Of a stretch of DNA of 64,000 nucleotides, positions 14,431 through 53,082 are shown in pieces. The notes under the pieces were generated by a model, which saw only the letters and a program-made list of their open reading frames with translations, did no database searches and was not told the DNA's origin. The stretch's first letter is position 1, and every line of letters starts with the position of its first letter. The position numbers were made by a program, and so were the translations under genes. This DNA comes from an uncultured Actinomycetota bacterium (GTDB lineage Bacteria; Actinomycetota; Acidimicrobiia; Spongiisociales; UBA4744): positions 356,900-420,899 of the forward strand of contig CAVPPF010000007.1 in NCBI GenBank assembly GCA_963707435.1, given 5' to 3'.

Positions 14431-14454
14431 AATTGAGGGGGAACAAGGAGCAAC

Positions 14455-15339: not shown

Positions 15340-15342
15340 AAC

Positions 15343-36468: not shown

Positions 36469-39091
36469 ATGGATTCCAATCAGCTCCGATCGACCTTTCT
36501 GAAGTTCTTCGAAGCACGCTCTCACACCGTGCGGCCGTCTTCGTCGCTGATACCCGTCGACCCGACGCTGCTGCTGAACAACGCCGGCATGGTGCCGTTC
36601 AAGCCCTACTTCCTGGGCGAGGAACAGCCGCCCTGGTTGCGAGCCGTCTCGTCGCAGAAGTGTGTTCGAACCGTCGATATCGACATCATCGGGACCACCG
36701 CTCGCCACGCCAGCTTCTTCGAGATGCTCGGCAACTTCAGCTTCGGCGACTACTTCAAGGAAGACGCTATTCCGTGGGCCTACGAGCTGGTGACGGAGGC
36801 GTTCGGCATCGACCCCGAGTTCCTGTGGTTCACCGTTCACGAGACGGATGACGAGGCCGCCGAAATCTGGCTCGACAAGGTCGGCGTCGAGCCTCACCGG
36901 TTGCAGCGGCGCGGTCACGACAACTTCTGGCAGATGGGCGTGCCGGGACCCTGCGGACCCAGCTCGGAGATCTTCTTCGACCGTGGCTCCGCCTACGGGC
37001 CCGACGGGGGACCGGTCGTTGATGAGGAGCGGTTCGTCGAGATCTGGAATCTCGTGTTCATGCAGAACATCCAGGACGAGCCCTACCACGTCGTGGGAGA
37101 TCTCCCGGCGAAGAGCATCGACACGGGAATGGGCCTCGAGCGCATGGCCACCGTCATGCAAGGGGCAGCAACCATCTTTGATATCGACGTCGTGCGGCAT
37201 GTCCTCGACACGGCCGCCCGATCGGCCGGAGTGGCCTACGGCGAAGACCCCATGGTGGACGTGTCGTTGCGGGTCCTGGCCGACCACGGACGGGCGATGA
37301 CGTTCCTCATCGGCGACGGCGTGGTCCCTTCGAACGACGGGCGCGGATACGTGCTCCGCCGCATCCTGCGCCGGGCCGTCCGGCACGCCTGGAGATTGGG
37401 CGGCGAAGGTTTGATCACGCCCAAACTGGTTCAGGCCACGGTCGACGTCATGAGCCCCGGGTATCCGGAATTGCTGGATCAGCAGGGCTTCATCACCGAT
37501 GTTGTGACCCGGGAGGAGGCACGCTTCCGTCAGACGCTGCGGTCCGGGCACACCCTGCTCGAAACCGAACTGGAATCGATCGCCGAGGGTGAGCCCCTTT
37601 CCGGTGACACAACGTTCAAACTGCACGATACGTTTGGATTCCCGGTCGAACTGACCAAGGAAATCGCTGCGGAGCGCGGTGTGGAGATCGACCTGGGAGC
37701 GTTCGAGGCCGCCATGGATGAGCAGCGTAGGAAAGCCCGGGCTGCCTGGAAAGGTGGCGAGGACGCGGCGAGCTGCCGATGCCTACCGGATCCTGCTGGA
37801 TGACATCGGCCCGACCGAGTTCCTCGGGTACACGCACGAGGCCAGCCAGAGCAGGGTGCTCTCGCTCCTCAGGGAGGGAGAGGTCATCGACCGCGCCGAG
37901 GAAGGCCAGGAGGTGGAGGTCTTCCTCGATCGGACGCCGTTCTACGCGGAGGCGGGTGGCCAGGTCGGCGATACCGGTCTGATCGAGACCGATACCGGCC
38001 GCCTCACGGTCAGGGACACCCAGGCCGGCGTACCCGGTCTCAACGGCCATCGCGCGGTGGTGGCAAGCGGCTTCGTGCAGGTCGGGCAAGACGCTCAGGC
38101 CAGGATCGATTCGCCGCGCCGGGAGGGCATCCGCAAGAGCCACACCGGAACGCACGTCCTGCACTGGGCCCTCCGCAAGGTCCTCGGTACCCACGTTCAG
38201 CAGGCCGGTTCGCTCGTCCAGAACGGTCGTTTGCGATTCGATTTCAGCCATTTTGGAGGCCTGGAGGAGGACGAATTCTCCGAGGTCGAGCGACTGGCGA
38301 ATGAACGGGTCATCGCCAACGCGGGCGTGCGAGCATTTGAAACCAGCAAAGACGAGGCGCAGGCGCTGGGAGCACTGGCCTTCTTCGGCGACAAGTACGG
38401 CGAGGTTGTGCGGGTCGTCGAGATCGGCGACTACTCGAAGGAGCTGTGCGGTGGCACGCATACTCCTTCGGTCGGCCAGGTTGGTCCGCTCGTAGTCATG
38501 GGCGAATCCTCCATCGGATCGAATCTCCGGCGCATCGAGGCCTACTCCGGCGAGCACGCCTACCAGTACCTGACCGGACTCCGGAGACGTTTGACCGACA
38601 CCGGCCACCTGTTGCGTGCCCAGCCCGACGAGGTGCCCGCCCGGGTCGCCGCCCTCATGAAGCGGGCCAAAGAGCTCGAAGAGGAACTGGCCGCAATCGG
38701 ACAACGATCGCGAGCAGAAGCAGCCGTCGAAATCGCCGCGAACGCCGGAACGATCGGCGAGGCCAAGTGGGCGGTAGCCGGCGTCGGTGAGATGCCGCCC
38801 GACCAATTGCGGGTGCTCGCCCTGCAAGTCCGCGACCGCCTCGGTCGCAGTGTGGTCGTGCTCGGAAGCACCAATGAAGGCAAGGGTGCCCTGCTGGCTG
38901 CGGTGTCCGCCGACCTGGTTGCTGCCGGGTTGTCCGCAGCCGAAATCATTCTTCCCGCCGCCAGGATCCTCGGAGGGGGAGGCAGCCGGGATCCCGAGCT
39001 TGCGCAGGCCGGCGGGCCTCGCGGGGACCGGCTGGAGGAAGCTCTCGACGCTGCCAGGGAAGCCGCCGCAAGCGCCCTGACGGAGGTGTGA
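36469..39091 (+). pseudogene. alaS: alanine--tRNA ligase, reading frame broken by an apparent +1 frameshift near 37771
   Basis: ORF 36469..37803 is a complete AlaS N-terminal catalytic half (..FFEMLGNFSFGDYFK.., ..DTGMGLERM..) ending ..RKARAAWKGGEDAASCRCLPDPAG*. ORF 37679..39091 in the +1 frame is the C-terminal half (..AADAYRILLDDIGPTEFLGY.., HTGTHVLHWAL zinc motif, ..CGGTHTPSVGQVGP..). Removing one base around gcggcgAgctgcc (about 37771) joins them as ..GGEDAA-AADAYRIL... Confidence 0.85.
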
Positions 39092-39501
39092 TTCTGGGTC
39101 GTGTCATGGGGCTCGATTACGGCACGCGACGCATCGGCGTTGCCCTCTCCGACGCATTGCAGCTGACCGCCCAGCCGTTCGCCGTCCTCGATACATCCTC
39201 GGGGCGGCTCCGGTCGGAACTGCTCGGCCTGGTGGAGGACAACGACGTCGAGTTGGTCGTCGTCGGACTTCCGGTCGGCCTGTCCGGCAGCGAAACCGAG
39301 TCGACCGCGGGAGCCCGGAAATTGGCCGCCCGGGTCGGGGAGATCACCGGGCTGCCGGTCGAGATGGCCGACGAACGTTTCACCACCCGGACCGCCGAGC
39401 AAGTCCTGATCGGTGCCAACGTGCGCAGGCAGCGGCGCAAGCAAGTCGTCGACAAGGTGGCCGCGGCGGTCATGCTGCAGCACTACCTGGACGGTCGCTG
39501 A
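39088..39501 (+). CDS. ruvX: Holliday junction resolvase-like / pre-16S rRNA nuclease YqgF
   Basis: GLDYGTRRIGVALSD...VVVGLP are RNase H-fold YqgF motifs. GTG overlaps the alaS stop; the alternative ATG is at 39106. Confidence 0.8.
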   Translation: MILGRVMGLDYGTRRIGVALSDALQLTAQPFAVLDTSSGRLRSELLGLVEDNDVELVVVGLPVGLSGSETESTAGARKLAARVGEITGLPVEMADERFTTRTAEQVLIGANVRRQRRKQVVDKVAAAVMLQHYLDGR

Positions 39502-40586
39502 TGGTCGACGTTCCTCCCGAACCGCGAGGCGACGGTCTGCGGCGCGTCGGCGGCCTCGTGTTGCTGATCGTCATCCTCGGCGGCGCCTACCTGGGAGCCC
39601 GGGAGCTCGCCGACTGGGTCGGCGGGCTTGGTGGGATCTCCGACGTGACGGCACCGCCGGGTCTCGAGCCGGGACTGCCCGTCTCTGTGGAGATACCACC
39701 CGGCTCGGCCGCGCGTCAGATCGGAGTCCTTCTCGCCGAGGCGGGCGTTGTCGAGTCCGCCGGTCAGTTCGAGCTCGCCGTTCGCACGACCGAAACAGCA
39801 GAACGTCTCCAGGCAGGCCGCTACGACCTGGAGACCGGGATGGCGAACGACGTTGTCATCGACCTGTTGCTGCGCGGACCGATCATCGAGACCTTTCGCG
39901 TAACCGTACGCGAAGGCCTGTGGATCGGGGAGGTCCTCGACGAGATCGCCAGGCAGACCGATTTCGCCCGGACTGAACTGGAGCAGGCGCTGAGTACGGT
40001 GAACTCCTCACTGCTGCAGGGCCCCGCCTCCGACCCGATCTCTTGGGAAGGCCTGCTCTTCCCCGACACCTACGATTTCCCTCTCGACGCCGGGCCCGGG
40101 GACGTTCTCCAGCGGCTCGCCGACACCATGCAACAACGGGTCGCGGCGATCGACTGGTCCGAACTGGAATCGCGCGGACTCACGGTCTACGACGGGATCA
40201 TCATTGCATCGCTGATCGAAGCAGAAGCGGGCGTCGACGCCGACCGGCCGCTGATCGCGAGTGTGGTCGTCAACCGACTCGAGGCACCGATGGTGCTGGG
40301 CATCGACGCAACGGTGATCTACGCGCTGGGGGAGCGCGGCAAGTCGCTCACGGTTTCAGATCTCGACGTCGACTCACCGTACAACACCAGGAAGTTCCCC
40401 GGCCTCCCTCCGACCCCTATCGGCGGACCGGGGCGAGCTTCGCTCGAGGCAGCCGCATCCCCGGAAGACACCGACTTCCTCTACTACGTGCTGACCTCGG
40501 CAACCGGCGAGCATTCATTCACGGCCAGCTACGACGAGTTCCTCGCGTTCAAGCAGCAAGCCGTGGAGGACGGACTCATTCCCTGA
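39501..40586 (+). CDS. mltG: endolytic murein transglycosylase
   Basis: N-terminal TM then YceG-like domain: ..GLLFPDTYDF.., ..IIASLIEAEAG.., ..LGIDATVIYALGERGKSLTVSDLDVDSPYNTRKFPGLPPTPIGGPG. Confidence 0.85.
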   Translation: MVDVPPEPRGDGLRRVGGLVLLIVILGGAYLGARELADWVGGLGGISDVTAPPGLEPGLPVSVEIPPGSAARQIGVLLAEAGVVESAGQFELAVRTTETAERLQAGRYDLETGMANDVVIDLLLRGPIIETFRVTVREGLWIGEVLDEIARQTDFARTELEQALSTVNSSLLQGPASDPISWEGLLFPDTYDFPLDAGPGDVLQRLADTMQQRVAAIDWSELESRGLTVYDGIIIASLIEAEAGVDADRPLIASVVVNRLEAPMVLGIDATVIYALGERGKSLTVSDLDVDSPYNTRKFPGLPPTPIGGPGRASLEAAASPEDTDFLYYVLTSATGEHSFTASYDEFLAFKQQAVEDGLIP

Positions 40587-41395
40587 TGGCCGGCGACGTC
40601 GAACAGCATTGGGATCTGGTCCTGTTCGGTGATCCCGTCGACCACTCGTTGTCACCGGTGATCCAGCAGGCGGCTCTCGACGCGATCGGATTGGCGGGCA
40701 CCTACCGGGCCGTCCGCGTGGACGAGGCAGGCTTTCGACGCGGGTGCGCGGAGCTCCGGGAAGGGCGATGGCGCGGCGCCAACGTCACGATGCCCCACAA
40801 ACGGCTCGCCTGTGCCGAGGTGGACGCTCGAACCGATGAAGCAGGTCGCGCCGGGTCGGTCAACACCATTGTTGTCGACGGCGCGCGGTTGATCGGGCAC
40901 AGCACCGATATCGAAGGCATCCGCACAACCTGGGACGAAGCCGAACTTCCGGACCATGCTCCGGTGCTGGTGCTGGGCGCAGGCGGCGCAGCGGCGGCCG
41001 CCGTGATCGCCGCAGGCTCAACCGATGTGTTCCTCGCGGCCCGCCGCCTCGAGCTTGCCGCCGCTCTCGCTCGGGACGTGGACGTTGCCGTTCGCCCACT
41101 GCCGTGGGGAACGGCGGTTGCCGGAGCCGTCGTCGTCAACGCCACGCCGCTCGGCATGTCCGGCGAATCACTGCCACCCGGCATTGTGGAACAAGCCGCC
41201 GGATTGCTCGACATGGCATACGGACGCTCCACCACGCCTGCAGTGCAGACCGCCCGCAGCCGCGGAATTCCCCACGCGACCGGAACCGATCTCTTAGTGG
41301 CCCAGGCGGCGGCTTCGTTCACGCTCTGGACCGGCCGGGCAGCGCCGGTGGCGGCGATGCGGGCTGCGCTCCAAAAGGCTCAAGCGACAGGCTAG
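40586..41395 (+). CDS. aroE: shikimate dehydrogenase
   Basis: LFGDPVDHSLSPVIQQAAL (the AroE SxS motif), ..ANVTMPHK.., ..VLVLGAGGAAAAAV.. (Rossmann). Start at MAGDVE overlapping the mltG stop. The upstream ORF-track extension lies inside mltG and is rejected. Confidence 0.8.
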   Translation: MAGDVEQHWDLVLFGDPVDHSLSPVIQQAALDAIGLAGTYRAVRVDEAGFRRGCAELREGRWRGANVTMPHKRLACAEVDARTDEAGRAGSVNTIVVDGARLIGHSTDIEGIRTTWDEAELPDHAPVLVLGAGGAAAAAVIAAGSTDVFLAARRLELAAALARDVDVAVRPLPWGTAVAGAVVVNATPLGMSGESLPPGIVEQAAGLLDMAYGRSTTPAVQTARSRGIPHATGTDLLVAQAAASFTLWTGRAAPVAAMRAALQKAQATG

Positions 41396-41436
41396 GAGCG
41401 CCGAAACTCCCTGAGAGTCGGTACGGAGGAGTCTTC

Positions 41437-42342
41437 ATGTCGCTAACCGGTGCCCTCGAGGCATTTCCGCTTCCCGAGGTACTTCGCCTCCTGGCGCGGT
41501 CGGAAAAGAGCGGGACGCTGAGAATTGACGCATCCGACCTGCAAGGTCGGATCTACCTCACAGATGGTTCGCTCAGCTACGCGACGACCCGCCGCGAGGA
41601 GGATCTGGTCGATGATCTTGTCGGAGCGGGTTTGATCGACTCCCAGGACTGGGTGCTGGTCGAGCGCCGCGAGAAGGACGTCGTCGAAGTTCTGGCCGCA
41701 GACGCCACCGAGCAGCAACTGACCGACCTCCTGGCCGACCAGATCGCCGATGTCATCTTTCGATTGATGCGCCGCAGCGACGGCGACTTCGAATTCTCGG
41801 AGTCCGTCGGCCCGCGCTACAACACGGGGATCAGCGTTGACATCGACGCCTCGATAGCCGAGGCGGAGAAACGAAACGCGCAGTGGTCGGAGATCGAGGA
41901 CGTGATCCCGGCGATCACGTTCCATCTGCGCATGGTTCCCGATCTCAACGACCGCAACGAGGTCTCCGTTCCGTCGACTACCTGGAGGGTGCTCGCCGCC
42001 CTGCAGGGTGAGGGAAGCATCGAAGAGGTAGCACGACGACTGGGAATGACCGACTTCGCCGTCGCGCAGATCATGGCCGGACTTGCCCGGGACGGTCTGC
42101 TCGAAATCGTCGATATGCCGCCACCCGCCGCCTACGGGTACGGTGACGTGCCCCAGGAACCACAGCAAGCCCCGGCGCCGCAACCGGAAGCTCCCGTCGA
42201 GGACGACCAGGATGACGAAATCCTTCTCGAATCGGCGTTGTCCGATGTCGTGGCACCCGAAGAGGATCCTGACGCTCCGGTGATCGCCCGCAGACGTGGC
42301 CTCGGCGCCCGTGTCCAGGAAGCTAAGGACGCCGGTGAGTAA
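41437..42342 (+). CDS. PATAN/DUF4388-domain protein with acidic Pro-rich C-terminal tail
   Basis: Start MSLTGAL after GGAGG. ..GALEAFPLPEVLRLLARSEKSGTLRIDASDLQGRIYLTDGSLSYATT fits the DUF4388/PATAN pattern. A winged-helix-like segment (..EEVARRLGMTDFAVAQIMAGLARDGLL) follows. Tail is PPPAAYGYGDVPQEPQQAPAPQPEAPVEDDQDDEILLESALSDVVAPEEDPDAP. Lies immediately upstream of pilB. Confidence 0.6.
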   Translation: MSLTGALEAFPLPEVLRLLARSEKSGTLRIDASDLQGRIYLTDGSLSYATTRREEDLVDDLVGAGLIDSQDWVLVERREKDVVEVLAADATEQQLTDLLADQIADVIFRLMRRSDGDFEFSESVGPRYNTGISVDIDASIAEAEKRNAQWSEIEDVIPAITFHLRMVPDLNDRNEVSVPSTTWRVLAALQGEGSIEEVARRLGMTDFAVAQIMAGLARDGLLEIVDMPPPAAYGYGDVPQEPQQAPAPQPEAPVEDDQDDEILLESALSDVVAPEEDPDAPVIARRRGLGARVQEAKDAGE

Positions 42343-42349
42343 TCGAGCC

Positions 42350-44032
42350 ATGGTCCAGCGGGATGCGGGACATCTCGGGACGCTCCTCCTCGAGGAGGGC
42401 ATCGTCACCGAGGAGACCCTCAAGAAGGGCCTCGATCTCCACCATGAGACCGGCCGTCCACTCGGACGCGTCCTCGTGGAAGAGAACCTGGTCGAAGAAC
42501 GCGACCTCGTCCGGGTACTCGCCAAGAACATCGGGATCGAATTCGTCGACCTGGACGAGGGTGCCGTCGACCCGGCCGCCGCAGCCCTGATCCCCGAAGC
42601 TCTGGCCAGGCGCTACGCCGCACTGCCCATCGGTTTTGAGGACGAGAAGCTCGTGATTGCGATGGCCGACCCGGCCAATGTGCTGGCGATCGACGACATC
42701 CGGGCGATCTCCGGGCGTGAGGTGATCCTCAAGGTAGCCACCCGCTCGGATGTGGAGGCTGCGGTATCCCGTCTTGCCTCGCTCGACAACTCTGTGACCG
42801 ATATGGCCGAGCTCGCCGCCGAGGACTCGGTTGAGGCGCATGATCTCAGCGCCGTTGAAGCGGCGGCGGATGAGGCGCCGGTCGTCAAGCTGGTCAACAT
42901 GCTGATTACCAGGGCAGCCGCCGACCGTGCTTCGGACATCCACATCGAACCAACCGAACGAGACCTCAGAGTCCGATTCCGGATCGACGGTGTACTCCAC
43001 GAGATCATGCGGACTCCCCGTTCGATCTCAAATGCGCTCGTCAGCCGGCTCAAGATCATGGCCGACATCGACATCGCCGAGCGGCGCCGTCCTCAGGACG
43101 GACGCATCAACCTGAAGGTCGGTGGCAAACAGCTCGACCTCCGCGTGTCGAGCCTGCCCACCATCTACGGCGAGAAAGTCGTAATGCGGCTGCTCGATAC
43201 CGGTACGGCACTGCTCGAGCTCAAGGATCTCGGATTCCTCGGTGAAAACGAGCGGCGCTACCAGGAATCGTTCAGCAAGCCGTACGGGACCATCCTGTGC
43301 GTCGGGCCGACCGGTTCCGGCAAGTCGACCACGCTCTATGCAACGCTCAACGTCCTCAACCGGCCGGAAGTGAACATCGTGACGATCGAGGACCCGGTCG
43401 AGTACCGGCTGCCGGGAATCAGCCAGGTCCAGGTGAACAAGAAGGCCGGCCTCAACTTCGCATCGGCCTTGCGCTCGTTCCTGCGCCAGGACCCGGACAT
43501 CATGCTGGTTGGTGAGATCCGTGACCAGGAGACGGCGAACATCGCCATTGAATCGGCGCTGACCGGCCACCTGGTTCTTTCCACGCTCCACACCAACAAT
43601 GCTCCCGCCAGTGTCAGCCGCTTGATCGAGATGGGGGTCGAACCGTTCCTGGTGGGCTCCGCCCTCGACGCAGTCTTGGCGCAGCGCCTCGCCCGACGGT
43701 TGTGCAGTCACTGCAAAGAGGAATACACCCCAACGGCGGAGGCGCTTCGGGAAGCCAACTTCCCCATGGAGGATCGCGATGAAGCGCCCAAGCTGCACCG
43801 GGCCGTTGGCTGCAAACACTGCGCAAATACCGGCTACCGGGGCCGGCTGGCAGTCCATGAGTTGATGACCGTGAACGAGGAGATCGAGTTGCTGACCGTT
43901 GAGCGAGCCGCCACCGAGAACCTGACGCGGGCGGCTATCGCCAACGGAATGCGGACCCTCAGACAGGACGGCATGGACAAGGTTGCCATGGGGCTCACCT
44001 CCATCGAGGAGATCATGCGGGTGATCATCTAG
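42350..44032 (+). CDS. pilB: type IV pilus assembly ATPase
   Basis: Two N-terminal GspE_N/MshEN-like repeats (..LGTLLLEEGIVTEETLKKGL.., ..PLGRVLVEENLVEERDLVRVL..), a T2SSE_N domain, Walker A VGPTGSGKSTT, Asp/His boxes and the tetracysteine CSHC...CKHC. Confidence 0.88.
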   Translation: MVQRDAGHLGTLLLEEGIVTEETLKKGLDLHHETGRPLGRVLVEENLVEERDLVRVLAKNIGIEFVDLDEGAVDPAAAALIPEALARRYAALPIGFEDEKLVIAMADPANVLAIDDIRAISGREVILKVATRSDVEAAVSRLASLDNSVTDMAELAAEDSVEAHDLSAVEAAADEAPVVKLVNMLITRAAADRASDIHIEPTERDLRVRFRIDGVLHEIMRTPRSISNALVSRLKIMADIDIAERRRPQDGRINLKVGGKQLDLRVSSLPTIYGEKVVMRLLDTGTALLELKDLGFLGENERRYQESFSKPYGTILCVGPTGSGKSTTLYATLNVLNRPEVNIVTIEDPVEYRLPGISQVQVNKKAGLNFASALRSFLRQDPDIMLVGEIRDQETANIAIESALTGHLVLSTLHTNNAPASVSRLIEMGVEPFLVGSALDAVLAQRLARRLCSHCKEEYTPTAEALREANFPMEDRDEAPKLHRAVGCKHCANTGYRGRLAVHELMTVNEEIELLTVERAATENLTRAAIANGMRTLRQDGMDKVAMGLTSIEEIMRVII

Positions 44033-44138
44033 CGGAGCGGCCGGGACCGGGCGGGCCGCGGAAACCTTCAAGCCGGAGCGATCCGGTGCCGAAACTCAAG
44101 TGAGGCAGATCGCCTCGAAGGGAAACTGGAAGAGAGCA

Positions 44139-45704
44139 ATGAACACAGCATCACGCAGACTCGGTGAGCTCCTGGTTGATCGCAGGTTGCTGTCCAAGGA
44201 CAGCCTGGAAGGCCTCCTGGAGAAGGAAACCGCGACCGGCGTTCCCATTGCCAAGCTCCTCATCGATGGCGGGCACGTCCGCGAGGAAGACTTGCTCCGA
44301 GCCGTTGCCGACCGGGTCGGCATGCTGTACATAGATCTCGACGATGCGCTGCTCGATCCGGAAGCCGTCGGCATGATCGACGCCGACGCCGCCAGGCAGC
44401 TCATGGTCATACCCGTCCGCACGGAAGACGAGAAGGTCGTCGTCGCCGTAGCGGATCCCTTCGACCCGGAGACCCACGTGCGTCTCGAGAAGACGCTCGG
44501 AGTAGGTGTCACCCTCGCCCTGGCCACCCGGGCGGCTATCGGCAGAGCCATCGATTTCGTCCACGGTGCCGAACAGGTTCCGCTCGTCCGCCAACCCGGA
44601 ATGCCGGCGCAGGAGGGGACGATCAGCGAACCCGAGACCTTGCATCTCAACGAACTCCTCGGCATTCAGCTCGATCGCGGCGGATCCGACCTGCACCTCA
44701 CCGCCGGCTCCCACCCGCAGATCCGGGTGCACGGAAAACTAGAACGACTGAGCGACTTTCCGATCATGAAACCGGCCGAGTTGCGCCGCATGATCTACAG
44801 CATTCTCACCGAGAAACAGCGGGAGAAGCTCGAAGAAACCCTGGAACTCGACGCTTCCCATCCGGTGCCCGGACGTGGCCGTTTTCGCATGAACGTGTAC
44901 TTTCAGCGCGATTCGATCGGCGCCGCCTTTCGAGCCATTCCGACCGACATCATGTCGCTCCAGCAGCTGGGGATCCCACCGTCGGTCGGTGAGCTGGCCG
45001 ATTTGCAGCGCGGCCTGGTGCTGGTCACCGGTCCTACCGGGTCCGGCAAGTCGACGACCCTGGCGGCTCTCATCGACATGGTGAACAGCAAGCGTTCGTG
45101 CCACATCCTGACCGTCGAGGATCCAATCGAGTTCCTCCACGTGCACAAGCAGGCAATCGTCAACCAACGCGAGGTTGGGGCGGACACGCTCGGCTTCGGC
45201 CCCGCCTTGAAACACGCCCTACGGCAGGACCCCGACGTGATCCTGGTAGGTGAGTTGCGGGACCTCGAGACCATCTCGACCGCTCTGACGGCTGCAGAGA
45301 CCGGTCACCTCGTGTTCGCAACGTTGCACACGCAGGATGCACCGCAGACGATCGACCGGATTGTCGACGTATTTCCTTCACACCAGCAGCAACAGGTGCG
45401 GGTCCAGCTCGCCTCGACCATCCAGGCCATCATGACGCAGCAACTCGTGCCGCTGCGGACCGGCAAGGGTCGGGTCCCGGCAGTCGAGGTGATGGTTGCC
45501 ACGTCTGGGATCCGGAACCTCATCCGGGAATCAAAGAACCATCAGATCACCACAGCGATGCAAGCCGGTGGCAAACACGGCATGCAGACCATGGATCAGG
45601 CTCTGGCAGACCTGGTTCGCCGCAATCTCATCTCGTACGCGGTAGCCGTGGAACGCTGCATGAACCTGGAGGATTTCCAAAGGCTCGCGGGCCGGATGGC
45701 ATAG
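44139..45704 (+). CDS. pilT: PilT-type twitching/retraction ATPase with about 150 aa N-terminal GspE_N-like extension
   Basis: Core: TGPTGSGKSTTLAAL, GIRNLIRESK (PilT AIRNLIRE motif), ..PSHQQQQVRVQLASTIQAIMTQQL... N-terminus: RRLGELLVDRRLLSKDSLEGLLEKE (MshEN-like) then ..LLRAVADRVGMLYIDLDDALLDPEAVGMIDADAARQLMVIPVRTEDEKVVVAVADPFDPE.. (T2SSE_N-like). Start at MNTASRRLGEL after GAAGAGAG; 13 codons upstream are rejected. Confidence 0.82.
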   Translation: MNTASRRLGELLVDRRLLSKDSLEGLLEKETATGVPIAKLLIDGGHVREEDLLRAVADRVGMLYIDLDDALLDPEAVGMIDADAARQLMVIPVRTEDEKVVVAVADPFDPETHVRLEKTLGVGVTLALATRAAIGRAIDFVHGAEQVPLVRQPGMPAQEGTISEPETLHLNELLGIQLDRGGSDLHLTAGSHPQIRVHGKLERLSDFPIMKPAELRRMIYSILTEKQREKLEETLELDASHPVPGRGRFRMNVYFQRDSIGAAFRAIPTDIMSLQQLGIPPSVGELADLQRGLVLVTGPTGSGKSTTLAALIDMVNSKRSCHILTVEDPIEFLHVHKQAIVNQREVGADTLGFGPALKHALRQDPDVILVGELRDLETISTALTAAETGHLVFATLHTQDAPQTIDRIVDVFPSHQQQQVRVQLASTIQAIMTQQLVPLRTGKGRVPAVEVMVATSGIRNLIRESKNHQITTAMQAGGKHGMQTMDQALADLVRRNLISYAVAVERCMNLEDFQRLAGRMA

Positions 45705-45717
45705 GAGGACCGGACAC

Positions 45718-46941
45718 ATGGCGACATCAACGTTCACCTACAAGGTCAAGGACAAGACGGGCAAGCTGCACGACGGCGAGATGCAGGCTTCGTCCCAGTC
45801 GGCCGTGGCCAAGGCGCTGCGTGAGCGCGGGTTTGTGCCGGTTGCGGTGGAGGAGAAGAAGGCTTCGACGCTCCAGATGGAGATCAAGATCCCCGGTCTG
45901 TCCGGTCGGGTGAAGGTCAAGGAGGTCTCGGTCTTCAGCCGCCAGTTCGCCACCATGATCAACTCGGGCCTCTCGCTGCTGCGTTCCCTGACCATCCTGG
46001 CCGAACAGACGCCGAACCGTGCTTTCCGAGACATCATTCTCGAGGTCAAATCCGACGTGGAGAAGGGGTCGTCGCTTTCCCAGGCTCTGGAGAAGCACCC
46101 GAAAGTATTCCCCAGGCTCTATTCCTCCATGGTGAAGTCGGGTGAGGTTGGTGGTGTTCTGGACGAGACGCTCGAGCGATTGGCGCTGACGCTCGAGGCG
46201 CAGGTCGAACTCCGGTCTCAGGTCAAGTCGGCCATGATGTACCCGGCTGCGGTTTTCGGGTTGGTCATCTTCATCGTCATCGCCATGCTGCTGTTCGTCG
46301 TGCCGATGTTCGAATCGATGTTTGCCGACTTCGGAGCGGAACTTCCGCTCCCGACCCGGATGCTCATGTCGCTTTCGGTAATCTTCACTACGTACTGGTA
46401 CGTTGCCATTGGTGGCACGGTCGCGGCGATCTACGGCTTCAAGCGGTGGATCGCCACCGATCGCGGTCGCAGCAGGTTCGACGCCATCAAGCTGAAAATG
46501 CCCATTTTCGGCAAACTGGTCCACAAAACTGCGCTGGCCCGTTTCTCGCATACCCTGGCCGCCCTGACCCGGACCGGTGTTCCCATTCTGATGGCGATGG
46601 ATATCGTGGCCGAAACCTCCGGCAATGCCGTGGTTGCCCGGGCCGTGCACAGCGTGCAGGCCTCGGTGAAAGAGGGAGAGTCGATCGCCGAACCGCTCTC
46701 GAACCATCCTGTGTTCCCGCCGATGGTCGTGCAGATGATGGCCGTCGGGGAGGAGACGGGCGCGCTCGACACGATGTTGGAGAAGGTCGGCGATTTCTTC
46801 GACCGGGAGGTCAAGACGATGGTCGAAGGTCTTACCAGCCTCATCGAGCCTCTCCTGGTCGTGATCCTGGGTGCCACCGTCGGCGGCATGCTGCTGGCGC
46901 TCTACCTGCCCATCTTCAACGTCATCACGCTGATCGACTAA
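45718..46941 (+). CDS. pilC: type IV pilus platform protein (GspF family)
   Basis: Duplicated T2SSF domains (..SRQFATMINSGLSLLRSLTIL.., ..LARFSHTLAALTRTGVPILMAMD..) and three TM blocks. AGGAGG RBS. Confidence 0.88.
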   Translation: MATSTFTYKVKDKTGKLHDGEMQASSQSAVAKALRERGFVPVAVEEKKASTLQMEIKIPGLSGRVKVKEVSVFSRQFATMINSGLSLLRSLTILAEQTPNRAFRDIILEVKSDVEKGSSLSQALEKHPKVFPRLYSSMVKSGEVGGVLDETLERLALTLEAQVELRSQVKSAMMYPAAVFGLVIFIVIAMLLFVVPMFESMFADFGAELPLPTRMLMSLSVIFTTYWYVAIGGTVAAIYGFKRWIATDRGRSRFDAIKLKMPIFGKLVHKTALARFSHTLAALTRTGVPILMAMDIVAETSGNAVVARAVHSVQASVKEGESIAEPLSNHPVFPPMVVQMMAVGEETGALDTMLEKVGDFFDREVKTMVEGLTSLIEPLLVVILGATVGGMLLALYLPIFNVITLID

Positions 46942-47079
46942 CGACCGGTCGACGCACTAGTCACTTCCGGCGCAGATGAATAGGCAGCAAGTAGCGAATT
47001 GCCGCTCAACTCTCGGCCACGTAGGGCCGATATCTACTGATGAGGGCCGAACGCCGGCTCTCTCCAAAGGAGGAATCTC

Positions 47080-47532
47080 ATGATTCGTTGGATCAACAGC
47101 CGACTCGGAAACGAGGAAGGCTTTACGTTGGTCGAGTTGATGGTGGTCGTATTGATCATTGCCATTCTTGTGGCGATCGCCATCCCGACCTTCCTCGGTG
47201 CTCGTACCAGTGCCCAGGACCGGGCCGCTCAGAGCGACCTGCGCAACGCCCTGACCGCCGAGAAGGTGTTCTACGTGGACAACGAGGCGTACAGCGACAA
47301 CGGCGCAGGCGAGCTGGCTGCCATCGAGCCGAGCATCGACTGGGCCGCCGTCACCGTGACCCTGAACGCCCTGGACGACCAGGATGTCTGCTTGGAGCTG
47401 ACGTCGGCCAGCGGCACCGTGTTCGTACTCAAGGACATTGCGTCCGGCGCCAACGGTGGTGCCCCGGGTACCTATTACGGCACCGTCAACTGCGCTGGCG
47501 CAGTAGCGACCACAGCGGACGCCGGCTGGTAA
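47080..47532 (+). CDS. pilA: type IVa major pilin
   Basis: MIRWINSRLGNEEG|FTLVELMVVVLIIAILVAIAIPTFLGAR is a textbook class III leader plus N-methyl-Phe/Glu5 helix. C-terminal Cys pair (..DVCLELTS..GTVNCAG..). AAAGGAGGAATCTC RBS. Confidence 0.87.
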   Translation: MIRWINSRLGNEEGFTLVELMVVVLIIAILVAIAIPTFLGARTSAQDRAAQSDLRNALTAEKVFYVDNEAYSDNGAGELAAIEPSIDWAAVTVTLNALDDQDVCLELTSASGTVFVLKDIASGANGGAPGTYYGTVNCAGAVATTADAGW

Positions 47533-47554
47533 ACAAACCCATCGACCGAGACCT

Positions 47555-47584
47555 CGAGAGGGCGGCCCGTAGGCCGCCCTCTCG
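47555..47584 (+). terminator. 13-bp perfect GC-rich hairpin 22 nt after the pilA stop (likely terminator/attenuator)
   Basis: CGAGAGGGCGGCC-cgta-GGCCGCCCTCTCG, every base paired. It is followed by GUAUGU, a weak U-tract, so it could also be a processing or stability hairpin. Confidence 0.6.
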
Positions 47585-47640
47585 GTATGTCCGGAGATCC
47601 CGGCGGAGCCCGCTAACGTGCTACGCCCGGGAGAGGAGCT

Positions 47641-48411
47641 ATGACCGCATACTTCGCCACGGTGGCCGGCCTGTTCGGGCTGCTCATCGGTTCTTTCTTG
47701 AACGTGGTCGCGTACCGGGTGCCGCTCGGTCGATCTGTCGTGTCGCCTCCCTCGGCGTGCCCGGCGTGTGGGCGCCCGATCCGCCCGCGTGACAACATCC
47801 CGGTGCTGTCCTGGCTACTGCTGCGCGGGAAGTGTCGCCAGTGCGGTGCTGCGATCTCGCCCCGCTATCCGATCGTCGAGGCCGCAACGGGGATCCTGTT
47901 CGCCGGAACCTATCTGGTGATCGGTGCCGTATGGGTTCTGCCCGCCTACCTGCTCTTCGTGGGAACAACCGTGGCGCTCATCCTGACGGACCTCGACCAC
48001 AAGCGGATCCCGAATCGCATTCTGTACCCGGCCACCGTGGCCGCCGTGTTCCTGCTGGCCCTCGGAGCCGCCGCCGATGGGAGGCTGGACGCAGTGCCGC
48101 GCGCCCTGGCGGGTGGTGCGATCTACTTTGGAATACTCCTCCTGATAGCCCTGGCCGCCCGCGGTGGGTTTGGCATGGGTGATGTCAAGCTGGCCTTCCT
48201 GCTCGGGACGTTCCTGGCTTTCGACTCCTGGGCGACCCTGTGGGCCGGGGTCTTCCTGGCCTTTCTCATCGGCGGCGGGGTGTCGCTGCTGCTCCTGGTC
48301 ACGAGACGGAAGGGCCGGAAGGATGCCATCCCGTTCGGTCCTCCACTCATGGTCGGGGCGTGGATCGCGGTGGTTTGGGGCCGGCAACTCGTCGATTGGT
48401 ATATGGGATAG
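47641..48411 (+). CDS. pilD: prepilin peptidase (A24 family)
   Basis: Zinc-finger N-terminus CPACGRPIRPRDNIPVLSWLLLRGKCRQCG, and catalytic Asp regions (..LILTDLDHKRIPN.., ..GMGDVKLAFLLG..). GGAGAGGAG RBS. Confidence 0.88.
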   Translation: MTAYFATVAGLFGLLIGSFLNVVAYRVPLGRSVVSPPSACPACGRPIRPRDNIPVLSWLLLRGKCRQCGAAISPRYPIVEAATGILFAGTYLVIGAVWVLPAYLLFVGTTVALILTDLDHKRIPNRILYPATVAAVFLLALGAAADGRLDAVPRALAGGAIYFGILLLIALAARGGFGMGDVKLAFLLGTFLAFDSWATLWAGVFLAFLIGGGVSLLLLVTRRKGRKDAIPFGPPLMVGAWIAVVWGRQLVDWYMG

Positions 48412-48570
48412 GCCAAACTCGACTTCTGTCGGCAGGCCCGGTGCTTGCGGCCGTTCGAACGCATTGTTACGCTCGTGTAATCACATCGTTGTAATTAGCG
48501 GTGTGGTGGTGGTCGAGCTGGGCCACGCGGGGGGAACCGGTCACAGAGGCCGGCCCAGGGCGGAGACAAC

Positions 48571-49641
48571 ATGGCGATCAACGTCGGGTTGGACATAGGC
48601 ACGAGCGCTGTTCGTGCGGCTGTTGTACAGACGGGCAAAGGGGTGCCCGTCTTACAGCGTTATGGGCAGGTGGCGCTCCCCGAAGGCGCCGTCGTCGCCG
48701 GCGAGATCGTGGAGGAAGCGATCGTCCGTGACGCCCTCATCCAACTCTGGAAAACCGCCAAGTTGCCGAAGAAGCGAGTCGTTGTCGGCATTGCCAATCA
48801 ACGAGTGATCGTACGGAGAGTCGATCTGCCCTACATGGCCGAGGACGAGCTCGCTCAGGCGCTCCCGTTCCAAGCCCAGGAGTTCATCCCGATACCGATC
48901 GACGAAGCGATTCTCGACTTTGTCCCGCTCGAAGAGTTCGCAACTCCCAACGGTGAGCCGATGCTTTCGGTCCTCGTGGTCGCCGCGCACAAAGACATGG
49001 CGGCCGATGTCCTGCGGGTCGTCGGAGATGCCGGGGTCAAGGTCATGGCCATCGATCTGCAGGCTTTCGCCCTGTCTCGTTCCGTCCTCGGCGCCGATTT
49101 CGATCTCGACTCGGGGGTTCAGGCGATCGTCAATATCGGCGCGGGCCTGACCCAGGTGATCCTCTTGAAGGCCGGGACCATCAGATTCCTCAGGATCCTG
49201 ACCATGGGAGGGGCCACGTTCACCGAGGCCCTGGCGGACCGTATGCCGATGGAACCGGAGCAGGCAGAGCAATACAAGCGCCGGACCGGCGTGGCCATCG
49301 ACGGTGTTCCTACGGGGACAGAAGGCGAGGGTCTTGCCAAAGTCGTGCTGACCGAAGAGGCCGATCTCCTCATCGAAGAGATCCGCGGCTCGGTGGACTA
49401 CTACCTGGGCCAATCGGGCAGCGACACCCTCGAGCGACTGTACGTGGCAGGCAACGGGGCCCGGCTCCCCAATCTTGCCAACCGTCTGGGTCGCGCGCTC
49501 GGCGTTGGTGTGGAACCAGTTCGGGTTCTCGACGATGAGAAGATGCAGGTCGGCAAACTCGGGTTGAGTGATGTCGAGCTGGCCCAGGCTCAGCCGGTCC
49601 TTCCGGTGCCGGTCGGGCTGGCGATGTGGGGCGAACTGTGA
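48571..49641 (+). CDS. pilM: type IV pilus assembly protein (actin-like ATPase fold)
   Basis: VGLDIGTSAVRAAVV..., ..VAGNGARLPNLANRL.. are the PilM/FtsA-like fold. Confidence 0.85.
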   Translation: MAINVGLDIGTSAVRAAVVQTGKGVPVLQRYGQVALPEGAVVAGEIVEEAIVRDALIQLWKTAKLPKKRVVVGIANQRVIVRRVDLPYMAEDELAQALPFQAQEFIPIPIDEAILDFVPLEEFATPNGEPMLSVLVVAAHKDMAADVLRVVGDAGVKVMAIDLQAFALSRSVLGADFDLDSGVQAIVNIGAGLTQVILLKAGTIRFLRILTMGGATFTEALADRMPMEPEQAEQYKRRTGVAIDGVPTGTEGEGLAKVVLTEEADLLIEEIRGSVDYYLGQSGSDTLERLYVAGNGARLPNLANRLGRALGVGVEPVRVLDDEKMQVGKLGLSDVELAQAQPVLPVPVGLAMWGEL

Positions 49642-50261
49642 TGCGTACGATCAACCTTCTCCCCCCGGAAGCAGCTCAGCGGGCCACCGCCCGGCGCAAA
49701 ACGTTCGGGTTCTTGGCGCTGGGGCTTGCCTACATTGCGCTGCTGGTGCTGGTTGCCATGTGGTGGCAGGGCAAAGCCAACGATGCGGAAGATGATCTTG
49801 CCGCCCAGCTCACCGCCAACGCCCGGATCGAGGCGGACATCGCCTCCCTGGCGGGGGTCCGGACCCTTCGCTCCACCTACGACGACGGTGTGACGAGGCT
49901 CGGCACCGCGCTGGCCAGGGACATCGCCTGGGGACGGCTGCTGAACGACCTGGCTCGCATCATCCCTGATCGCCTCTGGCTCACGAGCCTGACCGGGAAT
50001 CTTCAAAGCGACGACGAGAACCCGCTCCTGCTCGGCCAGGTTGCCGTTTCCGGAGTTGCTTTCGATTACCCGGATGCTTCATCGTGGCTGCGCGTGCTCG
50101 ATGCCGAGGAGTGGCCGGCGCTGGGCGGCGGGTGGGTCTCATCGACCAGCCGTTCGACCATCGGGGAGTCCCCGGTGGTCAACTTCACGTCGGTTGCCTC
50201 GCTCCTGGACGCTGCTCGTTCAAACCGGGTCGAAGAGCGAACCCCGGAGGTTCCGTCATGA
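49641..50261 (+). CDS. pilN: type IV pilus assembly protein
   Basis: MRTINLLPPE (the PilN INLLP motif) then a single TM and coiled coil. TGATG overlap with pilM. Confidence 0.8.
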   Translation: MRTINLLPPEAAQRATARRKTFGFLALGLAYIALLVLVAMWWQGKANDAEDDLAAQLTANARIEADIASLAGVRTLRSTYDDGVTRLGTALARDIAWGRLLNDLARIIPDRLWLTSLTGNLQSDDENPLLLGQVAVSGVAFDYPDASSWLRVLDAEEWPALGGGWVSSTSRSTIGESPVVNFTSVASLLDAARSNRVEERTPEVPS

Positions 50262-50869
50262 AGCGCACCGGTTTGATCATGGGCCTGCTGGGCCTGGGGC
50301 TGGTCACGGCCCTCTGGTACTTTTTTGTGATCTCCCCGACGAACACGAAGATCGCCGATGCGCAAGATCAGCTTGCAGCCGCGGAGGACAACCAGGTGCT
50401 GCTGCAAACCCAGCTCATGCGCCTCAAGAAGATTCAGGAGAACGAGCTTACCTACCGGTCGGCGATCGGTGCGCTCGAGGCCGCGATCCCGCCCACGCCG
50501 CAGATGCCTGCATTGATCGACGACCTGGCTCAACTGGCGGTCGACTCGGGCGTTGAATGGGAGAGCGGCACGTACGGGAACCCGGTTGAGGTGGAAGGGG
50601 AGGATTACTACGAGATTCCGGTCAACCTCTCCGTGCAGGGCCAGTTCTTCGAAGTGCTCGGGTACTTGTACGGGATCGCCGATATGGAACGGATCGTCCG
50701 CATCGACGCAGTGAGTCTCTCTCCCACGGAAGACGATGCCGGTTTCACGATCGAGAACGTTTCGATTTCCGCAGTCACCTTCACGACCGGCGATGTCGTG
50801 CTGCCGGTGCCCGAAGAACCCGCCGAGACCACGACCACGACCACGACGACCCCCGGGGACGGTGAGTGA
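50258..50869 (+). CDS. pilO: type IV pilus assembly protein
   Basis: MKRTGLIMGLLGLGLVTALWYFFV, coiled coil (..AQDQLAAAEDNQVLLQTQLMRLKK..), ferredoxin-like C-domain and a poly-Thr tail ETTTTTTTTPGDGE. ATGA overlap with pilN. Confidence 0.7.
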   Translation: MKRTGLIMGLLGLGLVTALWYFFVISPTNTKIADAQDQLAAAEDNQVLLQTQLMRLKKIQENELTYRSAIGALEAAIPPTPQMPALIDDLAQLAVDSGVEWESGTYGNPVEVEGEDYYEIPVNLSVQGQFFEVLGYLYGIADMERIVRIDAVSLSPTEDDAGFTIENVSISAVTFTTGDVVLPVPEEPAETTTTTTTTPGDGE

Positions 50870-51375
50870 TGCGAGCGAAGAACAGCGGCACCGCCGCGGC
50901 GGTAGCCATTCTCCTGATCGGCCTGGCGGTAGCCGGCGCCTGGATGGTTGTTGCTCCTTCCGTGTTCGGTTCGAACGACACGGTGTTGGACGGTCCGCTC
51001 GCCGAGTCGACCTTGGCGGCACCGGCCGGATCCGAGCTGATCGAGGGTGTGAAAGTGCTGAGCTCTTTCCAGGTATCACAGCCTCGTGACCCGTTTCGGC
51101 CGCTGATCACCGAAGACTCGACGACGGGAACCACCGGCGACGGAACCGGCACCGGTTTTGATCCGTCCGGGATCCGGGTGACCCTCGTCGAGATCAGGGA
51201 CGTTGCCGGTGTCCTGCGAGCCACCGTCAAGGTCGACGGCACCGACTACGACGTCGGCGTGGGTGATACCTTCGCGAGCAACTTCAAAGTGGTCAGTCTC
51301 GATCCCGACAGTGGCGTCTTCCTCTACGGCGACAACGCGTTCGAGCTGTCCGAAGGCCAGGAGATTCTGAAGTAG
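50866..51375 (+). CDS. PilP-like pilus assembly protein (N-terminal TM anchor, RDPF motif)
   Basis: AAVAILLIGLAVAGAWMVV anchor, then ..SQPRDPFRPLIT.. (the RDPF motif I associate with PilP) and a beta-rich C-domain. GTGA overlap with pilO. Confidence 0.5.
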   Translation: MMRAKNSGTAAAVAILLIGLAVAGAWMVVAPSVFGSNDTVLDGPLAESTLAAPAGSELIEGVKVLSSFQVSQPRDPFRPLITEDSTTGTTGDGTGTGFDPSGIRVTLVEIRDVAGVLRATVKVDGTDYDVGVGDTFASNFKVVSLDPDSGVFLYGDNAFELSEGQEILK

Positions 51376-51415
51376 CGACTTGCTAGTTCAGACCTGATAC
51401 CCGAAACTCTCTCGC

Positions 51416-52567
51416 ATGTTGCGTTTCCTCACAGCCGGCGAGTCGCACGGCCCCGGCCTGGTCACCATCGTCGAAGGCCTCCCGGCCGGACTCGATATCA
51501 CCGTTGAAGGGCTGGCCGATCAGCTGCGGAGGCGCCGTTTGGGGTTCGGTCGCGGCCGCCGCATGAAGATCGAGCAAGATGAGTTGGAGATTCTCGGCGG
51601 CGTTCGCCACGGGCGCACCCTGGGGAGCCCCCTGGCGGTTGTGATTCGCAACAGCGAGTGGGCGAAGTGGACCGAGGAGATGTCGCCGGGGGCGGGCCAC
51701 CCGAAGCGCCGGATGACGACACCTCGCCCGGGCCACGCGGATCTGGCCGGGATGCTCAAGTACGACACGTACGACGCTCGTGACATCCTGGAGCGGGCAT
51801 CTGCCCGGGAAACGGCCGCCAGAACCGTTGCCGGGTACGCGGCCCGGCAACTGCTCGCTCAGGTTGACATTTCGGTGCTGAGCCATGTCGTTGCCATCGG
51901 ACCTCTGACCGTGGCCGCCGGGACCACTCCCGGTCCCGACGACCTCGACATCATCGATGCGTCGCCGGTGCGAGTCTTCGATCGGGACATCGAAGACGCC
52001 ATGACATCGGCCATCGAGCAGGCCAAAGCCGACCGGGACACACTCGGCGGGGTGGTCGAAGTCCTGGCCTTTGGAGTACCGCCCGGCCTCGGCAGCCACG
52101 TCCACTGGGACCGGCGTCTCGATACCCGGCTCGCCGGTGCGCTCATGTCGATCCAGGGCATCAAGGCCGTCGAGATGGGTGACGGTTTTGCCTCGGCCTC
52201 CCGGCCGGGTTCGGAAGCCCACGATGAGATCGGTTTTGTCGACGGTCGATTCGTTCGGTCTTCGGATCGGGCGGGTGGCCTGGAGGGTGGAATCTCCACC
52301 GGACAGACGCTGCGGATGCGGGCCGCCATGAAGCCCATCTCAACGCTCATGCGGCCGCTGCAGAGCGTCAACGTCGAGAACAAGGAACCTGCCGCTGCCT
52401 TTCGGGAGCGTTCAGATGTATGTGCGGTCCCGGCCGCCGGTGTGGTGGCCGAGCAGATGGCGGCCTACATCCTGGCGGATGAGGTGGTGCGCACGTTCGG
52501 TGGGAACACGGTCGAGGATCTGGTCGCAGCCACCGACGCCTATCGAAGACGCCTGCTGGAATTCTGA
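51416..52567 (+). CDS. aroC: chorismate synthase
   Basis: MLRFLTAGESHGPGLVTIVEGLPAGL...GRSSARETAARV. Confidence 0.92.
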   Translation: MLRFLTAGESHGPGLVTIVEGLPAGLDITVEGLADQLRRRRLGFGRGRRMKIEQDELEILGGVRHGRTLGSPLAVVIRNSEWAKWTEEMSPGAGHPKRRMTTPRPGHADLAGMLKYDTYDARDILERASARETAARTVAGYAARQLLAQVDISVLSHVVAIGPLTVAAGTTPGPDDLDIIDASPVRVFDRDIEDAMTSAIEQAKADRDTLGGVVEVLAFGVPPGLGSHVHWDRRLDTRLAGALMSIQGIKAVEMGDGFASASRPGSEAHDEIGFVDGRFVRSSDRAGGLEGGISTGQTLRMRAAMKPISTLMRPLQSVNVENKEPAAAFRERSDVCAVPAAGVVAEQMAAYILADEVVRTFGGNTVEDLVAATDAYRRRLLEF

Positions 52568-53082
52568 TGAGGGTCCTCTGGCTCATCGGAATGATGGGGG
52601 CCGGCAAAACGACGGTGGGCGAGCTCATCGCCCGCCGCCTGGGCCTCGACCTCATCGACACCGACTCGCTCGTCGAGTCGGTGAGCGGGCTGTCGATCTC
52701 CGCGATATGGGAGCGCGGCGGTGAGAGCATCTTCCGGGATCTGGAGTCCCGGGAGATAGAGCGGATCGCGGCGGATGGCAAGGATTGTATCGTGGCCACG
52801 GGGGGCGGGGCAGTGCTCCGTCCCGGCAACGTCGAGACCATGCGTCGTGCCGGAACCGTCGTGTGGCTGCGCGCAGACCCGGGCATGCTCGCCTCGCGGG
52901 TGCTGCATGGTTCCGATGCCAGGCCGCTCCTCCGGGACGGGCCGGGCGAGGATCGGCTGGCCGCATTGCTATCCGACCGGGAAGATAACTATGCAGGTGC
53001 CGCCCACCACCAGATCGACACGAACTCCAAGACCGCGACCGAGGTCGCACGAGAGGTGATGGAGTTGTGGAACGGATCCTGA
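52567..53082 (+). CDS. aroK: shikimate kinase
   Basis: LIGMMGAGKTTVG (P-loop), DTDS. ATGA overlap with aroC. Confidence 0.88.
   Translation: MRVLWLIGMMGAGKTTVGELIARRLGLDLIDTDSLVESVSGLSISAIWERGGESIFRDLESREIERIAADGKDCIVATGGGAVLRPGNVETMRRAGTVVWLRADPGMLASRVLHGSDARPLLRDGPGEDRLAALLSDREDNYAGAAHHQIDTNSKTATEVAREVMELWNGS

Follow-up and report, generated by a model that had tools for sequence, protein, structure and literature searches.

The closest described counterparts of the protein reported here are the PatA-type proteins of Synechocystis (PixE, PixG, LsiR and the TaxP-type proteins), which join a PATAN (DUF4388, PF14332) domain to a receiver (REC) domain. The PATAN domain of PixE alone binds the N-terminal half of PilB1 as well as PilC's N-terminal domain, and the PATAN region (residues 1-258) is sufficient for function and reverses phototaxis; the authors of that study also proposed a resemblance between the alpha-clip and the beginning of the ATPase N1 domain, by which both may share one partner or compete for it (bioRxiv 10.1101/2021.06.11.447907). 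Receiver-less proteins make up the majority of the PATAN family (Han et al.), so the absence of a receiver is not unusual in itself. In Myxococcus xanthus, the stand-alone PATAN protein SgnC is, according to a paper that cites the original work, required for motility that depends on type IV pili (T4P; social motility), and two others of this kind, MXAN_3211 and MXAN_4965, occur together with SgmX, which recruits PilB (PMC11580455). PATAN genes near homologues of mglA and mglB have also been reported (Makarova 2006; Wuichet & Sogaard-Andersen 2014, PMC4316618). The links of PATAN to PilB and to MglAB are already published. Here we describe a receiver-less PATAN protein encoded at 41437-42342 (forward strand) of a 64-kb window (the whole stretch of 64,000 nucleotides that was analyzed: contig CAVPPF010000007.1, positions 356,900 to 420,899) from an uncultured bacterium of the Acidimicrobiia (Actinomycetota), where its gene stands directly before pilB.

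Like the PatA-type proteins, the window protein has an N-terminal PF14332 domain with a helical insertion (residues 1-258 of PixE being comparable to residues 1-227 here), and their functional link to the T4P extension motor would hold for it as well. Unlike them, it carries no receiver, having instead an acidic tether that ends in conserved peptides; and whereas PatA-type genes lie in chemotaxis-like operons, this gene lies inside the predicted pil operon of an actinobacterial (monoderm) host. SgnC and the other stand-alone PATAN proteins of M. xanthus are likewise described as lacking a receiver; their genes are not described as leaders of pilB operons. In its proposed role, a cytoplasmic accessory that recruits or activates the extension ATPase, the protein may be compared with SgmX/SopA of M. 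xanthus and FimX-PilZ of Xanthomonas and Pseudomonas (PMC11580455); these have unrelated folds and no homology to it, and the likeness is one of functional analogy alone.

A receiver-less PATAN protein at the head of a pilus cluster

The window protein is a member of the PATAN/DUF4388 family and not a PatA-type response regulator. Its match to PF14332 scores 70.9 bits (E=1.2e-19), the cut-off being 25, with residues 4-150 covering profile positions 1-121 of 122. Response_reg gave no match in the protein at E<=0.01 (Pfam), and tblastn with E. coli CheY over the whole window found no receiver domain at E<=1; a PatA-type response regulator was ruled out, the REC domain being absent. A decayed or spurious reading frame was likewise ruled out by the strong conservation among homologues. 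NCBIfam contains no model for this protein. The gene starts with ATG and leads a type IVa pilus (T4aP) cluster, being followed by pilB, pilT, pilC, pilA, pilD, pilM, pilN and pilO (assigned with Pfam and NCBIfam), with aroC downstream of the cluster. The gene, its parts and its immediate neighbours are as follows (AF2, AlphaFold2; pLDDT, predicted local distance difference test; ORF, open reading frame).

40586-41395, forward strand: aroE (shikimate dehydrogenase), 41 nt upstream of the PATAN gene (ORF list, synteny)
41427-41431, forward strand: Shine-Dalgarno-like GGAGG, 6-10 nt 5′ of the ATG (read from the sequence)
41437-42342, forward strand: coding sequence of the PATAN, winged-helix and tail protein, 301 aa, stop codon included (ORF list and sequence, Pfam DUF4388, 82 homologues)
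41437-41592, forward strand: N-terminal part of the PATAN core, residues 1-52; strand 2-6, helix 12-21, strands 26-32, 35-42 and 45-50 (AF2, pLDDT 95-98)
41593-41772, forward strand: alpha-helical insertion in the PATAN domain, residues 53-112; helices 56-63, 72-76, 82-85 and 92-111 (AF2)
41773-41904, forward strand: C-terminal part of the PATAN core, residues 113-156; strand 117-121 and long connecting helix 136-156 (AF2)
41905-42117, forward strand: winged-helix domain, residues 157-227; acidic, wing truncated
42118-42279, forward strand: acidic Pro/Ala/Gln-rich linker, residues 228-281 (pLDDT <55, composition and charge)
42211-42252, forward strand: tail motif 1, DDEILLESALSDVV, residues 259-272 (alignments, AF2)
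42280-42318, forward strand: C-terminal basic motif, VIARRRGLGARVQ, residues 282-294, containing RRRGLGA
42350-44032, forward strand: pilB, extension ATPase with N-terminal MshEN domain; ATG at 42350, 7 nt past the PATAN stop

The AF2 model, built on a 47-sequence alignment, is confident for residues 1-230 (pLDDT >90; predicted template modelling score 0.72). In the PATAN core, five strands form a sheet flanked by helices, which is interrupted by a four-helix insertion (residues 56-111), strands and insertion being modelled at pLDDT >94. Residues that are invariant in the alignment occur in both parts of the core: G5, P11, L12, L16, G26, L28 and G44 in the N-terminal part, and G116, F118, A143, W150, I153 and E154 in the C-terminal part. 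The last 74 residues are disordered in the model, but two motifs within them are conserved down to ~35% identity. The first reads LLESALSDVV in the window protein (pattern LLxSALSxVV) and is predicted as a short helix at residues 260-269; L264 and S269 are conserved in at least 90% of sequences in two alignments, and distant members carry an FLExVFSxL version. The second lies in the only basic segment of the protein (residues 282-301, net +2), and its RRRG[LM]G is kept throughout the window's subfamily, called A below. The linker varies among relatives from ~50 to ~350 aa. Pfam found no matches in the tail, nor in the helical insertion, when each was searched in isolation. A hydrophobic-moment test for a C-terminal amphipathic membrane-targeting helix gave values indistinguishable from those of shuffles, as did the MinD positive control.

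An earlier reading of the window from its sequence alone had anticipated most of this architecture: the DUF4388/PATAN domain, the missing receiver, a winged-helix-like segment (found at residues 180-224 of the model) and the position at the head of the pilus cluster were all borne out, and its statement that PATAN-receiver proteins act on the T4P extension motor agrees with the PixE study (bioRxiv 10.1101/2021.06.11.447907). Its disordered, acidic tail is both, but is not featureless, since it contains the two conserved motifs; and the distance to pilB, given there as 8 nt, is 7 nt (stop at 42342, pilB ATG at 42350).

The combination of PATAN, winged helix and variable tail is a very widespread module. 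A word-indexed search returned 82 homologues, essentially all from metagenome-assembled genomes of Acidimicrobiia, and HMMER with the family profile, run against 1.84 billion representatives clustered at 50% identity, found 16,770 proteins with E<=1e-3, among them 1,330 with E<=1e-30. An exact-sequence search of public contigs returned no record of the window protein itself. Nearly all of the top 150 have the N-terminal PATAN and winged helix, followed by tails of widely differing length. Three types of C-terminus recur: class A, that of the window subfamily (FLExVFSxL ... GLLRRRR(M/L)G), whose two tail motifs are kept across the 111 members among 230 sampled proteins; class B (ELARRWRNLR); and class C, an extreme C-terminal ...VD(R/K)xxLL(K/R)II(D/E)G(I/L)KxL helix, which in Acidimicrobiales also takes the form RGLLLKFLSSV. 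The design that recurs links a folded head through a flexible tether to a conserved peptide at the terminus.

We read the window protein, with confidence only a little better than even, as a constitutive PATAN-type adaptor or regulator of the type IV filament machinery and its motors that works without phosphorylation input. By analogy with PixE, the head (PATAN and winged helix) would bind PilB at the N-terminal (MshEN/N1) region, PilC at the cytoplasmic N-domain, or both. This binding would gate or position pilus extension with no input from phosphorylation, a GTPase or cyclic di-GMP (c-di-GMP), and the C-terminal peptide, on its acidic tether of ~50 residues, may contact a second partner, for example a platform protein or the membrane.

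Gene order in related genomes

We compared the window with 63 related loci (L001-L063) from species-representative genomes, and with an outgroup sample of five loci (L064-L068: class C representatives, and L068). Of the pil genes detected, pilB comes first after the PATAN gene in 12 of the 63 loci, at 23-93% identity of the PATAN protein to that of the window (best tblastn segment). The two genes are 7 nt apart in L001-L005, as they are in the window; in L007, L010, L051, L056 and L057 the gap is 4-97 nt. In L006 (8001-8908) and L008 (8001-8903) the PATAN gene and several of its neighbours are frameshifted; because many genes in these loci are affected, this looks like an assembly indel error and not pseudogenisation. 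Upstream, aroE is the final gene of a conserved alaS-ruvX-mltG-aroE block (synteny in 50+ loci).

The same slot is occupied in distant lineages. The order is alaS-ruvX-mltG-aroE-PATAN-pilB-pilT-pilC in L067, where the PATAN stop overlaps the pilB start; alaS-ruvX-mltG-aroE-Roadblock-PATAN-small GTPase-x-pilB-pilT in L065; and aroE-pilB-Roadblock-PATAN-GTPase-x-pilB-pilT-pilC-pilins-pilD-pilM in L064 and L066 (x, a further gene). Pfam Shikimate_dh_N was found in the aroE equivalents of L064-L067; L068, which is class-B-like, has an unrelated gene context. AlaS of L065 is just 46% identical to that of the window, so the aroE-to-pilB slot is old. In L064 (5255-13340) and L066 (5490-13466), two full-length pilB paralogues (MshEN and T2SSE, 558-559 aa) bracket the Roadblock-PATAN-GTPase module, and the downstream copy is the closer one to window PilB (55% vs 50% identity).

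These MglB/MglA-linked PATAN proteins resemble the window protein in their N-terminal PATAN and winged helix, long disordered tail and conserved C-terminal helix or peptide, and in the chromosomal slot between aroE and pilB-pilT-pilC (L064, L065, L066). They differ from it at the C-terminus (...LIxRLIDGVKGL, against RRRGLGA in the window), in a c-di-GMP-type motif that is gone from the window subfamily, and in their neighbours: no Roadblock or GTPase gene lies near the PATAN gene in the window or in the 63 subfamily loci, in which tblastn with the L064 and L065 proteins found none. The window subfamily has lost both the Roadblock/GTPase neighbours and the motif.

Several observations weigh against a role directed at the pilus motors. 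In 37 of the 63 loci, from Acidimicrobiia, the order is aroE-PATAN-pilD-aroC, and no pilB, pilT, pilC, pilA or pilMNO lies within ~8 kb, which means either that the protein is not specific to PilB or that these genomes carry their pil genes at another place. Four further loci hold class-B paralogues among TadE/TadG genes, that is, a sister subfamily placed in Tad clusters in all four cases. (Of the rest, eight loci end at a contig edge and two hold distant Polyangia proteins.) In a rough neighbour-joining tree of the head domains, the pilB-linked state occupies basal, paraphyletic branches, and the state with pilD directly next forms one large clade and at least two further lineages; on this rough tree, the latter state arose at least two to three times. 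BLASTP of the helical insertion against the N-terminus of window PilB gave E=0.1, which is not significant. Fold searches found no solved structure that matches the PATAN core, so the binding mode would be without structural precedent. Finally, co-transcription of the PATAN gene and pilB is predicted from their spacing alone; a scan for promoters and terminators over 39000-52800 gave counts equal to those in shuffles.

The gene is nevertheless not absent from the pilB neighbourhood in all relatives, and the idea of a PilB partner, put forward in the sequence-only reading, therefore survives: a PATAN gene precedes pilB in the 12 related loci and in four of the five sampled outgroup loci (L064-L067). 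That such a partner would be a dedicated one is weakened by the 37 loci with pilD directly next and by the Tad-linked sister subfamily.

The same distribution fits an alternative explanation, namely that the protein serves the cell envelope, or type IV filaments broadly (Tad pili, prepilin processing, cell-wall or division sites), as a general spatial or scaffolding factor, and that its place before pilB is a relic of ancestral gene order and not the mark of a PilB-directed regulator. We regard this explanation as possible, though rather unlikely. In its favor, the 37 loci keep the gene between aroE and pilD although pilB, pilT and pilC are not nearby, a state that was derived independently, and the ATPase of the Tad clusters that house the paralogues has no MshEN domain. 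T4aP genes are variably present in one Acidimicrobiia order, in which Tad genes are more widely retained (PMC12008989), and Anabaena PatA, as reported in a citing paper, is found at division sites and interacts with the divisome (see also PMC7380572). The gene is also downstream of alaS-ruvX-mltG-aroE on the same strand, but since this block is kept with or without the PATAN gene, little can be read from the adjacency. On the other side, wherever a locus has T4aP genes, the PATAN gene abuts either pilB or the MglAB-like module before pilB; and the genomes with the short locus have kept pilD, which implies that they still have type IV pilins. The distribution on the tree suggests that the core T4aP genes were lost or moved repeatedly, with PATAN and pilD staying in place.

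In the window the whole T4aP cluster lies within a housekeeping run (37679-52567; alaS-ruvX-mltG-aroE ... aroC(-aroK-aroB-efp-nusB)), and in the 37 related genomes (among L013-L055) PATAN and pilD alone remain between aroE and aroC; as sole remnants, they require two separate deletions or insertions flanking pilD. The PATAN protein of L017 has 578 aa, with a huge acidic linker between the same head and C-terminal motif, and runs into the start of the listed pilD ORF. The same locus contains, between nusB and the next gene (14200-15650), repeated units with near-identical peptides in several frames on both strands, which could be an array of repeats or clustered remnants of mobile elements. In L049 (2500-10030) and L046 (2600-12600), tandem pairs of class-B proteins with PATAN, winged helix and tail (ELARRWRNLR) are interleaved with repeated TadE/TadG-like genes.

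Winged helix and helical insertion

The winged-helix fold is present in the AF2 model at residues 180-224, and MarR_2 (residues 179-225) is the sole other Pfam match besides DUF4388. A domain of this kind could make the protein a winged-helix transcription factor that regulates the pil operon and uses its PATAN domain for sensing or oligomerisation, an explanation that we consider improbable. The MarR_2 match, at 23.1 bits, is below the Pfam cut-off of 27, and the wing is truncated and runs directly into the Pro-rich linker. Both the winged helix (net charge -4; family mean -3, range -8 to +1) and the protein as a whole (net -34, pI 4.2) are acidic; R201 and R218 of the winged helix are conserved. 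In the fold search, peptide-binding winged helices (PqqD/RRE, NPRL2) score equal to DNA-binding ones, and cyanobacterial PATAN proteins are membrane-localised and bind PilB and PilC; Han et al. judge DNA binding to be an unlikely role.

The helical insertion resembles the MshEN domain, which is carried by both PilB and PilT of the window. MshEN is defined by a pair of motifs of 24 residues each, RLGxx(L/V/I)(L/V/I)xxG(L/V/I)(L/V/I)xxxxLxxxLxxQ, with a 5-residue spacer, and Arg and Gly at positions 1 and 3 contact the ligand (Wang 2016, PMC5013675). The window insertion is, like MshEN, a four-helix unit, and it keeps the hydrophobic skeleton of the first motif (positions 2, 6, 7, 10, 11, 12 and 17). 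Against a relaxed form of the motif it reaches at best 7 of 11 positions, with replacements at position 1 (R to D, D56), 3 (G to V, V58), 21 (L to E) and 24 (Q to E, E79). The NCBIfam model of the MshE-related c-di-GMP-binding domain (NF053729; cut-off 38 bits) found no match in the window protein or in the L017 and L057 proteins, even at E<=1. Relatives do match it: the same region of the L064 and L065 PATAN proteins scores 42 and 48 bits, with two 24-residue motifs at the correct 5-residue spacing. The relaxed motif occurs in 43 of the 112 proteins with a C-terminus outside classes A and B, and in none of the 111 class A proteins; the L057 protein lacks the helical insertion altogether. Thus, the window insertion is a degenerate MshEN_N-like 'alpha-clip' without the c-di-GMP-contacting residues. 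We consider it highly improbable that the protein acts as a c-di-GMP receptor, with this insertion relaying the second messenger to the pilus motor. The matches of the L064 and L065 insertions speak for this explanation; against it, the profile match is missing in the window protein, L017 and L057, the motif is missing in all 111 class A proteins, the RLG Arg and Gly and the closing Gln are replaced, and the whole insertion is dispensed with in L057.

For a constitutive adaptor of the filament machinery, the reading that we favor, the lack of GTPase/Roadblock neighbours and of a c-di-GMP-type motif means that regulation would probably occur through abundance or partner binding, and not through a nucleotide signal.

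Pilus motors and the meaning of the family

Window PilB matches T2SSE at 468 bits and MshEN at 77 bits (Pfam) and TIGR02538 at 644 bits. Its N-terminus (42350-42520) scores 54 bits with NF053729, above the cut-off of 38, and is on this profile match a predicted c-di-GMP-binding domain; its first motif begins with HLG rather than RLG and ends with H rather than Q. The remaining genes of the cluster are listed below.

44139-45704, forward strand: pilT, retraction ATPase with an unusual N-terminal MshEN-like domain; ATG at 44139
45718-51375, forward strand: rest of the T4aP cluster (Pfam T2SSF, N_methyl, A24_N_bact and Peptidase_A24, PilM_2, PilN, PilO), made up of the next seven entries
45718-46941, forward strand: pilC (Pfam T2SSF)
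47080-47532, forward strand: pilA (Pfam N_methyl)
47641-48411, forward strand: pilD, prepilin peptidase (Pfam A24_N_bact and Peptidase_A24)
48571-49641, forward strand: pilM (Pfam PilM_2)
49626-50261, forward strand: pilN (Pfam PilN)
50258-50869, forward strand: pilO (Pfam PilO)
50866-51375, forward strand: ORF of 169 aa that overlaps the pilO stop; N-terminal hydrophobic segment, no Pfam match

PilT (~520 aa) has a normal PilT/PilU core, matching TIGR01420 at 470 bits over residues 169-507, and matches Pfam MshEN at 60.5 bits in its N-terminal part, which has two motifs at the correct 29-residue spacing and, at 35.7 bits, falls just short of the NF053729 cut-off (38). It is unusual for a retraction ATPase to carry an N-domain of the c-di-GMP type, as extension ATPases do; PilT of L065 seems to have one likewise, and those of L064, L066 and L067 (356-389 aa) are without it. 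Since the N-terminal MshEN of PilT is of the same kind as that of PilB, the head of the PATAN protein could discriminate between the two motors or compete with both, and it may also bind PilT. Elsewhere in the cluster, the 169-aa ORF may be a lineage-specific pilus alignment component, perhaps PilP-like, and PilO terminates (50830-50869) in a run of eight threonines (TTTTTTTTPGDGE), which on the extracytoplasmic side may form a linker or a segment of O-glycosylation type.

A bolder and, in our view, doubtful conjecture joins these elements. Proteins with PATAN, winged helix, tether and terminal peptide would be an unrecognised, near-universal accessory of the type IV filament machines of Actinomycetota (monoderms); the head would mimic the MshEN N-domain of PilB and PilT and compete for a docking site on PilM or PilC, so picking the motor, with the C-terminal peptide as anchor. 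The ancestral module would have been driven by c-di-GMP and MglA/MglB, and the form in Acidimicrobiia would be stripped-down and signal-independent, also serving Tad pili.

In the literature that we searched, we found no report of the conserved aroE-to-pilB slot in Actinomycetota, of the head, tether and peptide design with classes of terminal peptide tied to T4aP or Tad loci, or of the contrast between insertions with and without the c-di-GMP motif. The type IV pili of monoderm Actinomycetota are almost unstudied, as is the choice or positioning of their extension and retraction motors. The family described here is a concrete, genetically testable candidate for this, standing before pilB in several distant lineages and related to the sole domain shown to bind PilB in cyanobacteria. 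Its natural variants, which differ in the c-di-GMP motif (present or absent), in MglA/MglB-like neighbours (present or absent) and in linkage (to T4aP or to Tad), offer a ready-made comparative experiment. If the protein does not touch PilB, its retention beside pilD without local pilus genes becomes the question to answer; if it does, the link between PATAN and PilB would widen from cyanobacterial phototaxis to a general principle.

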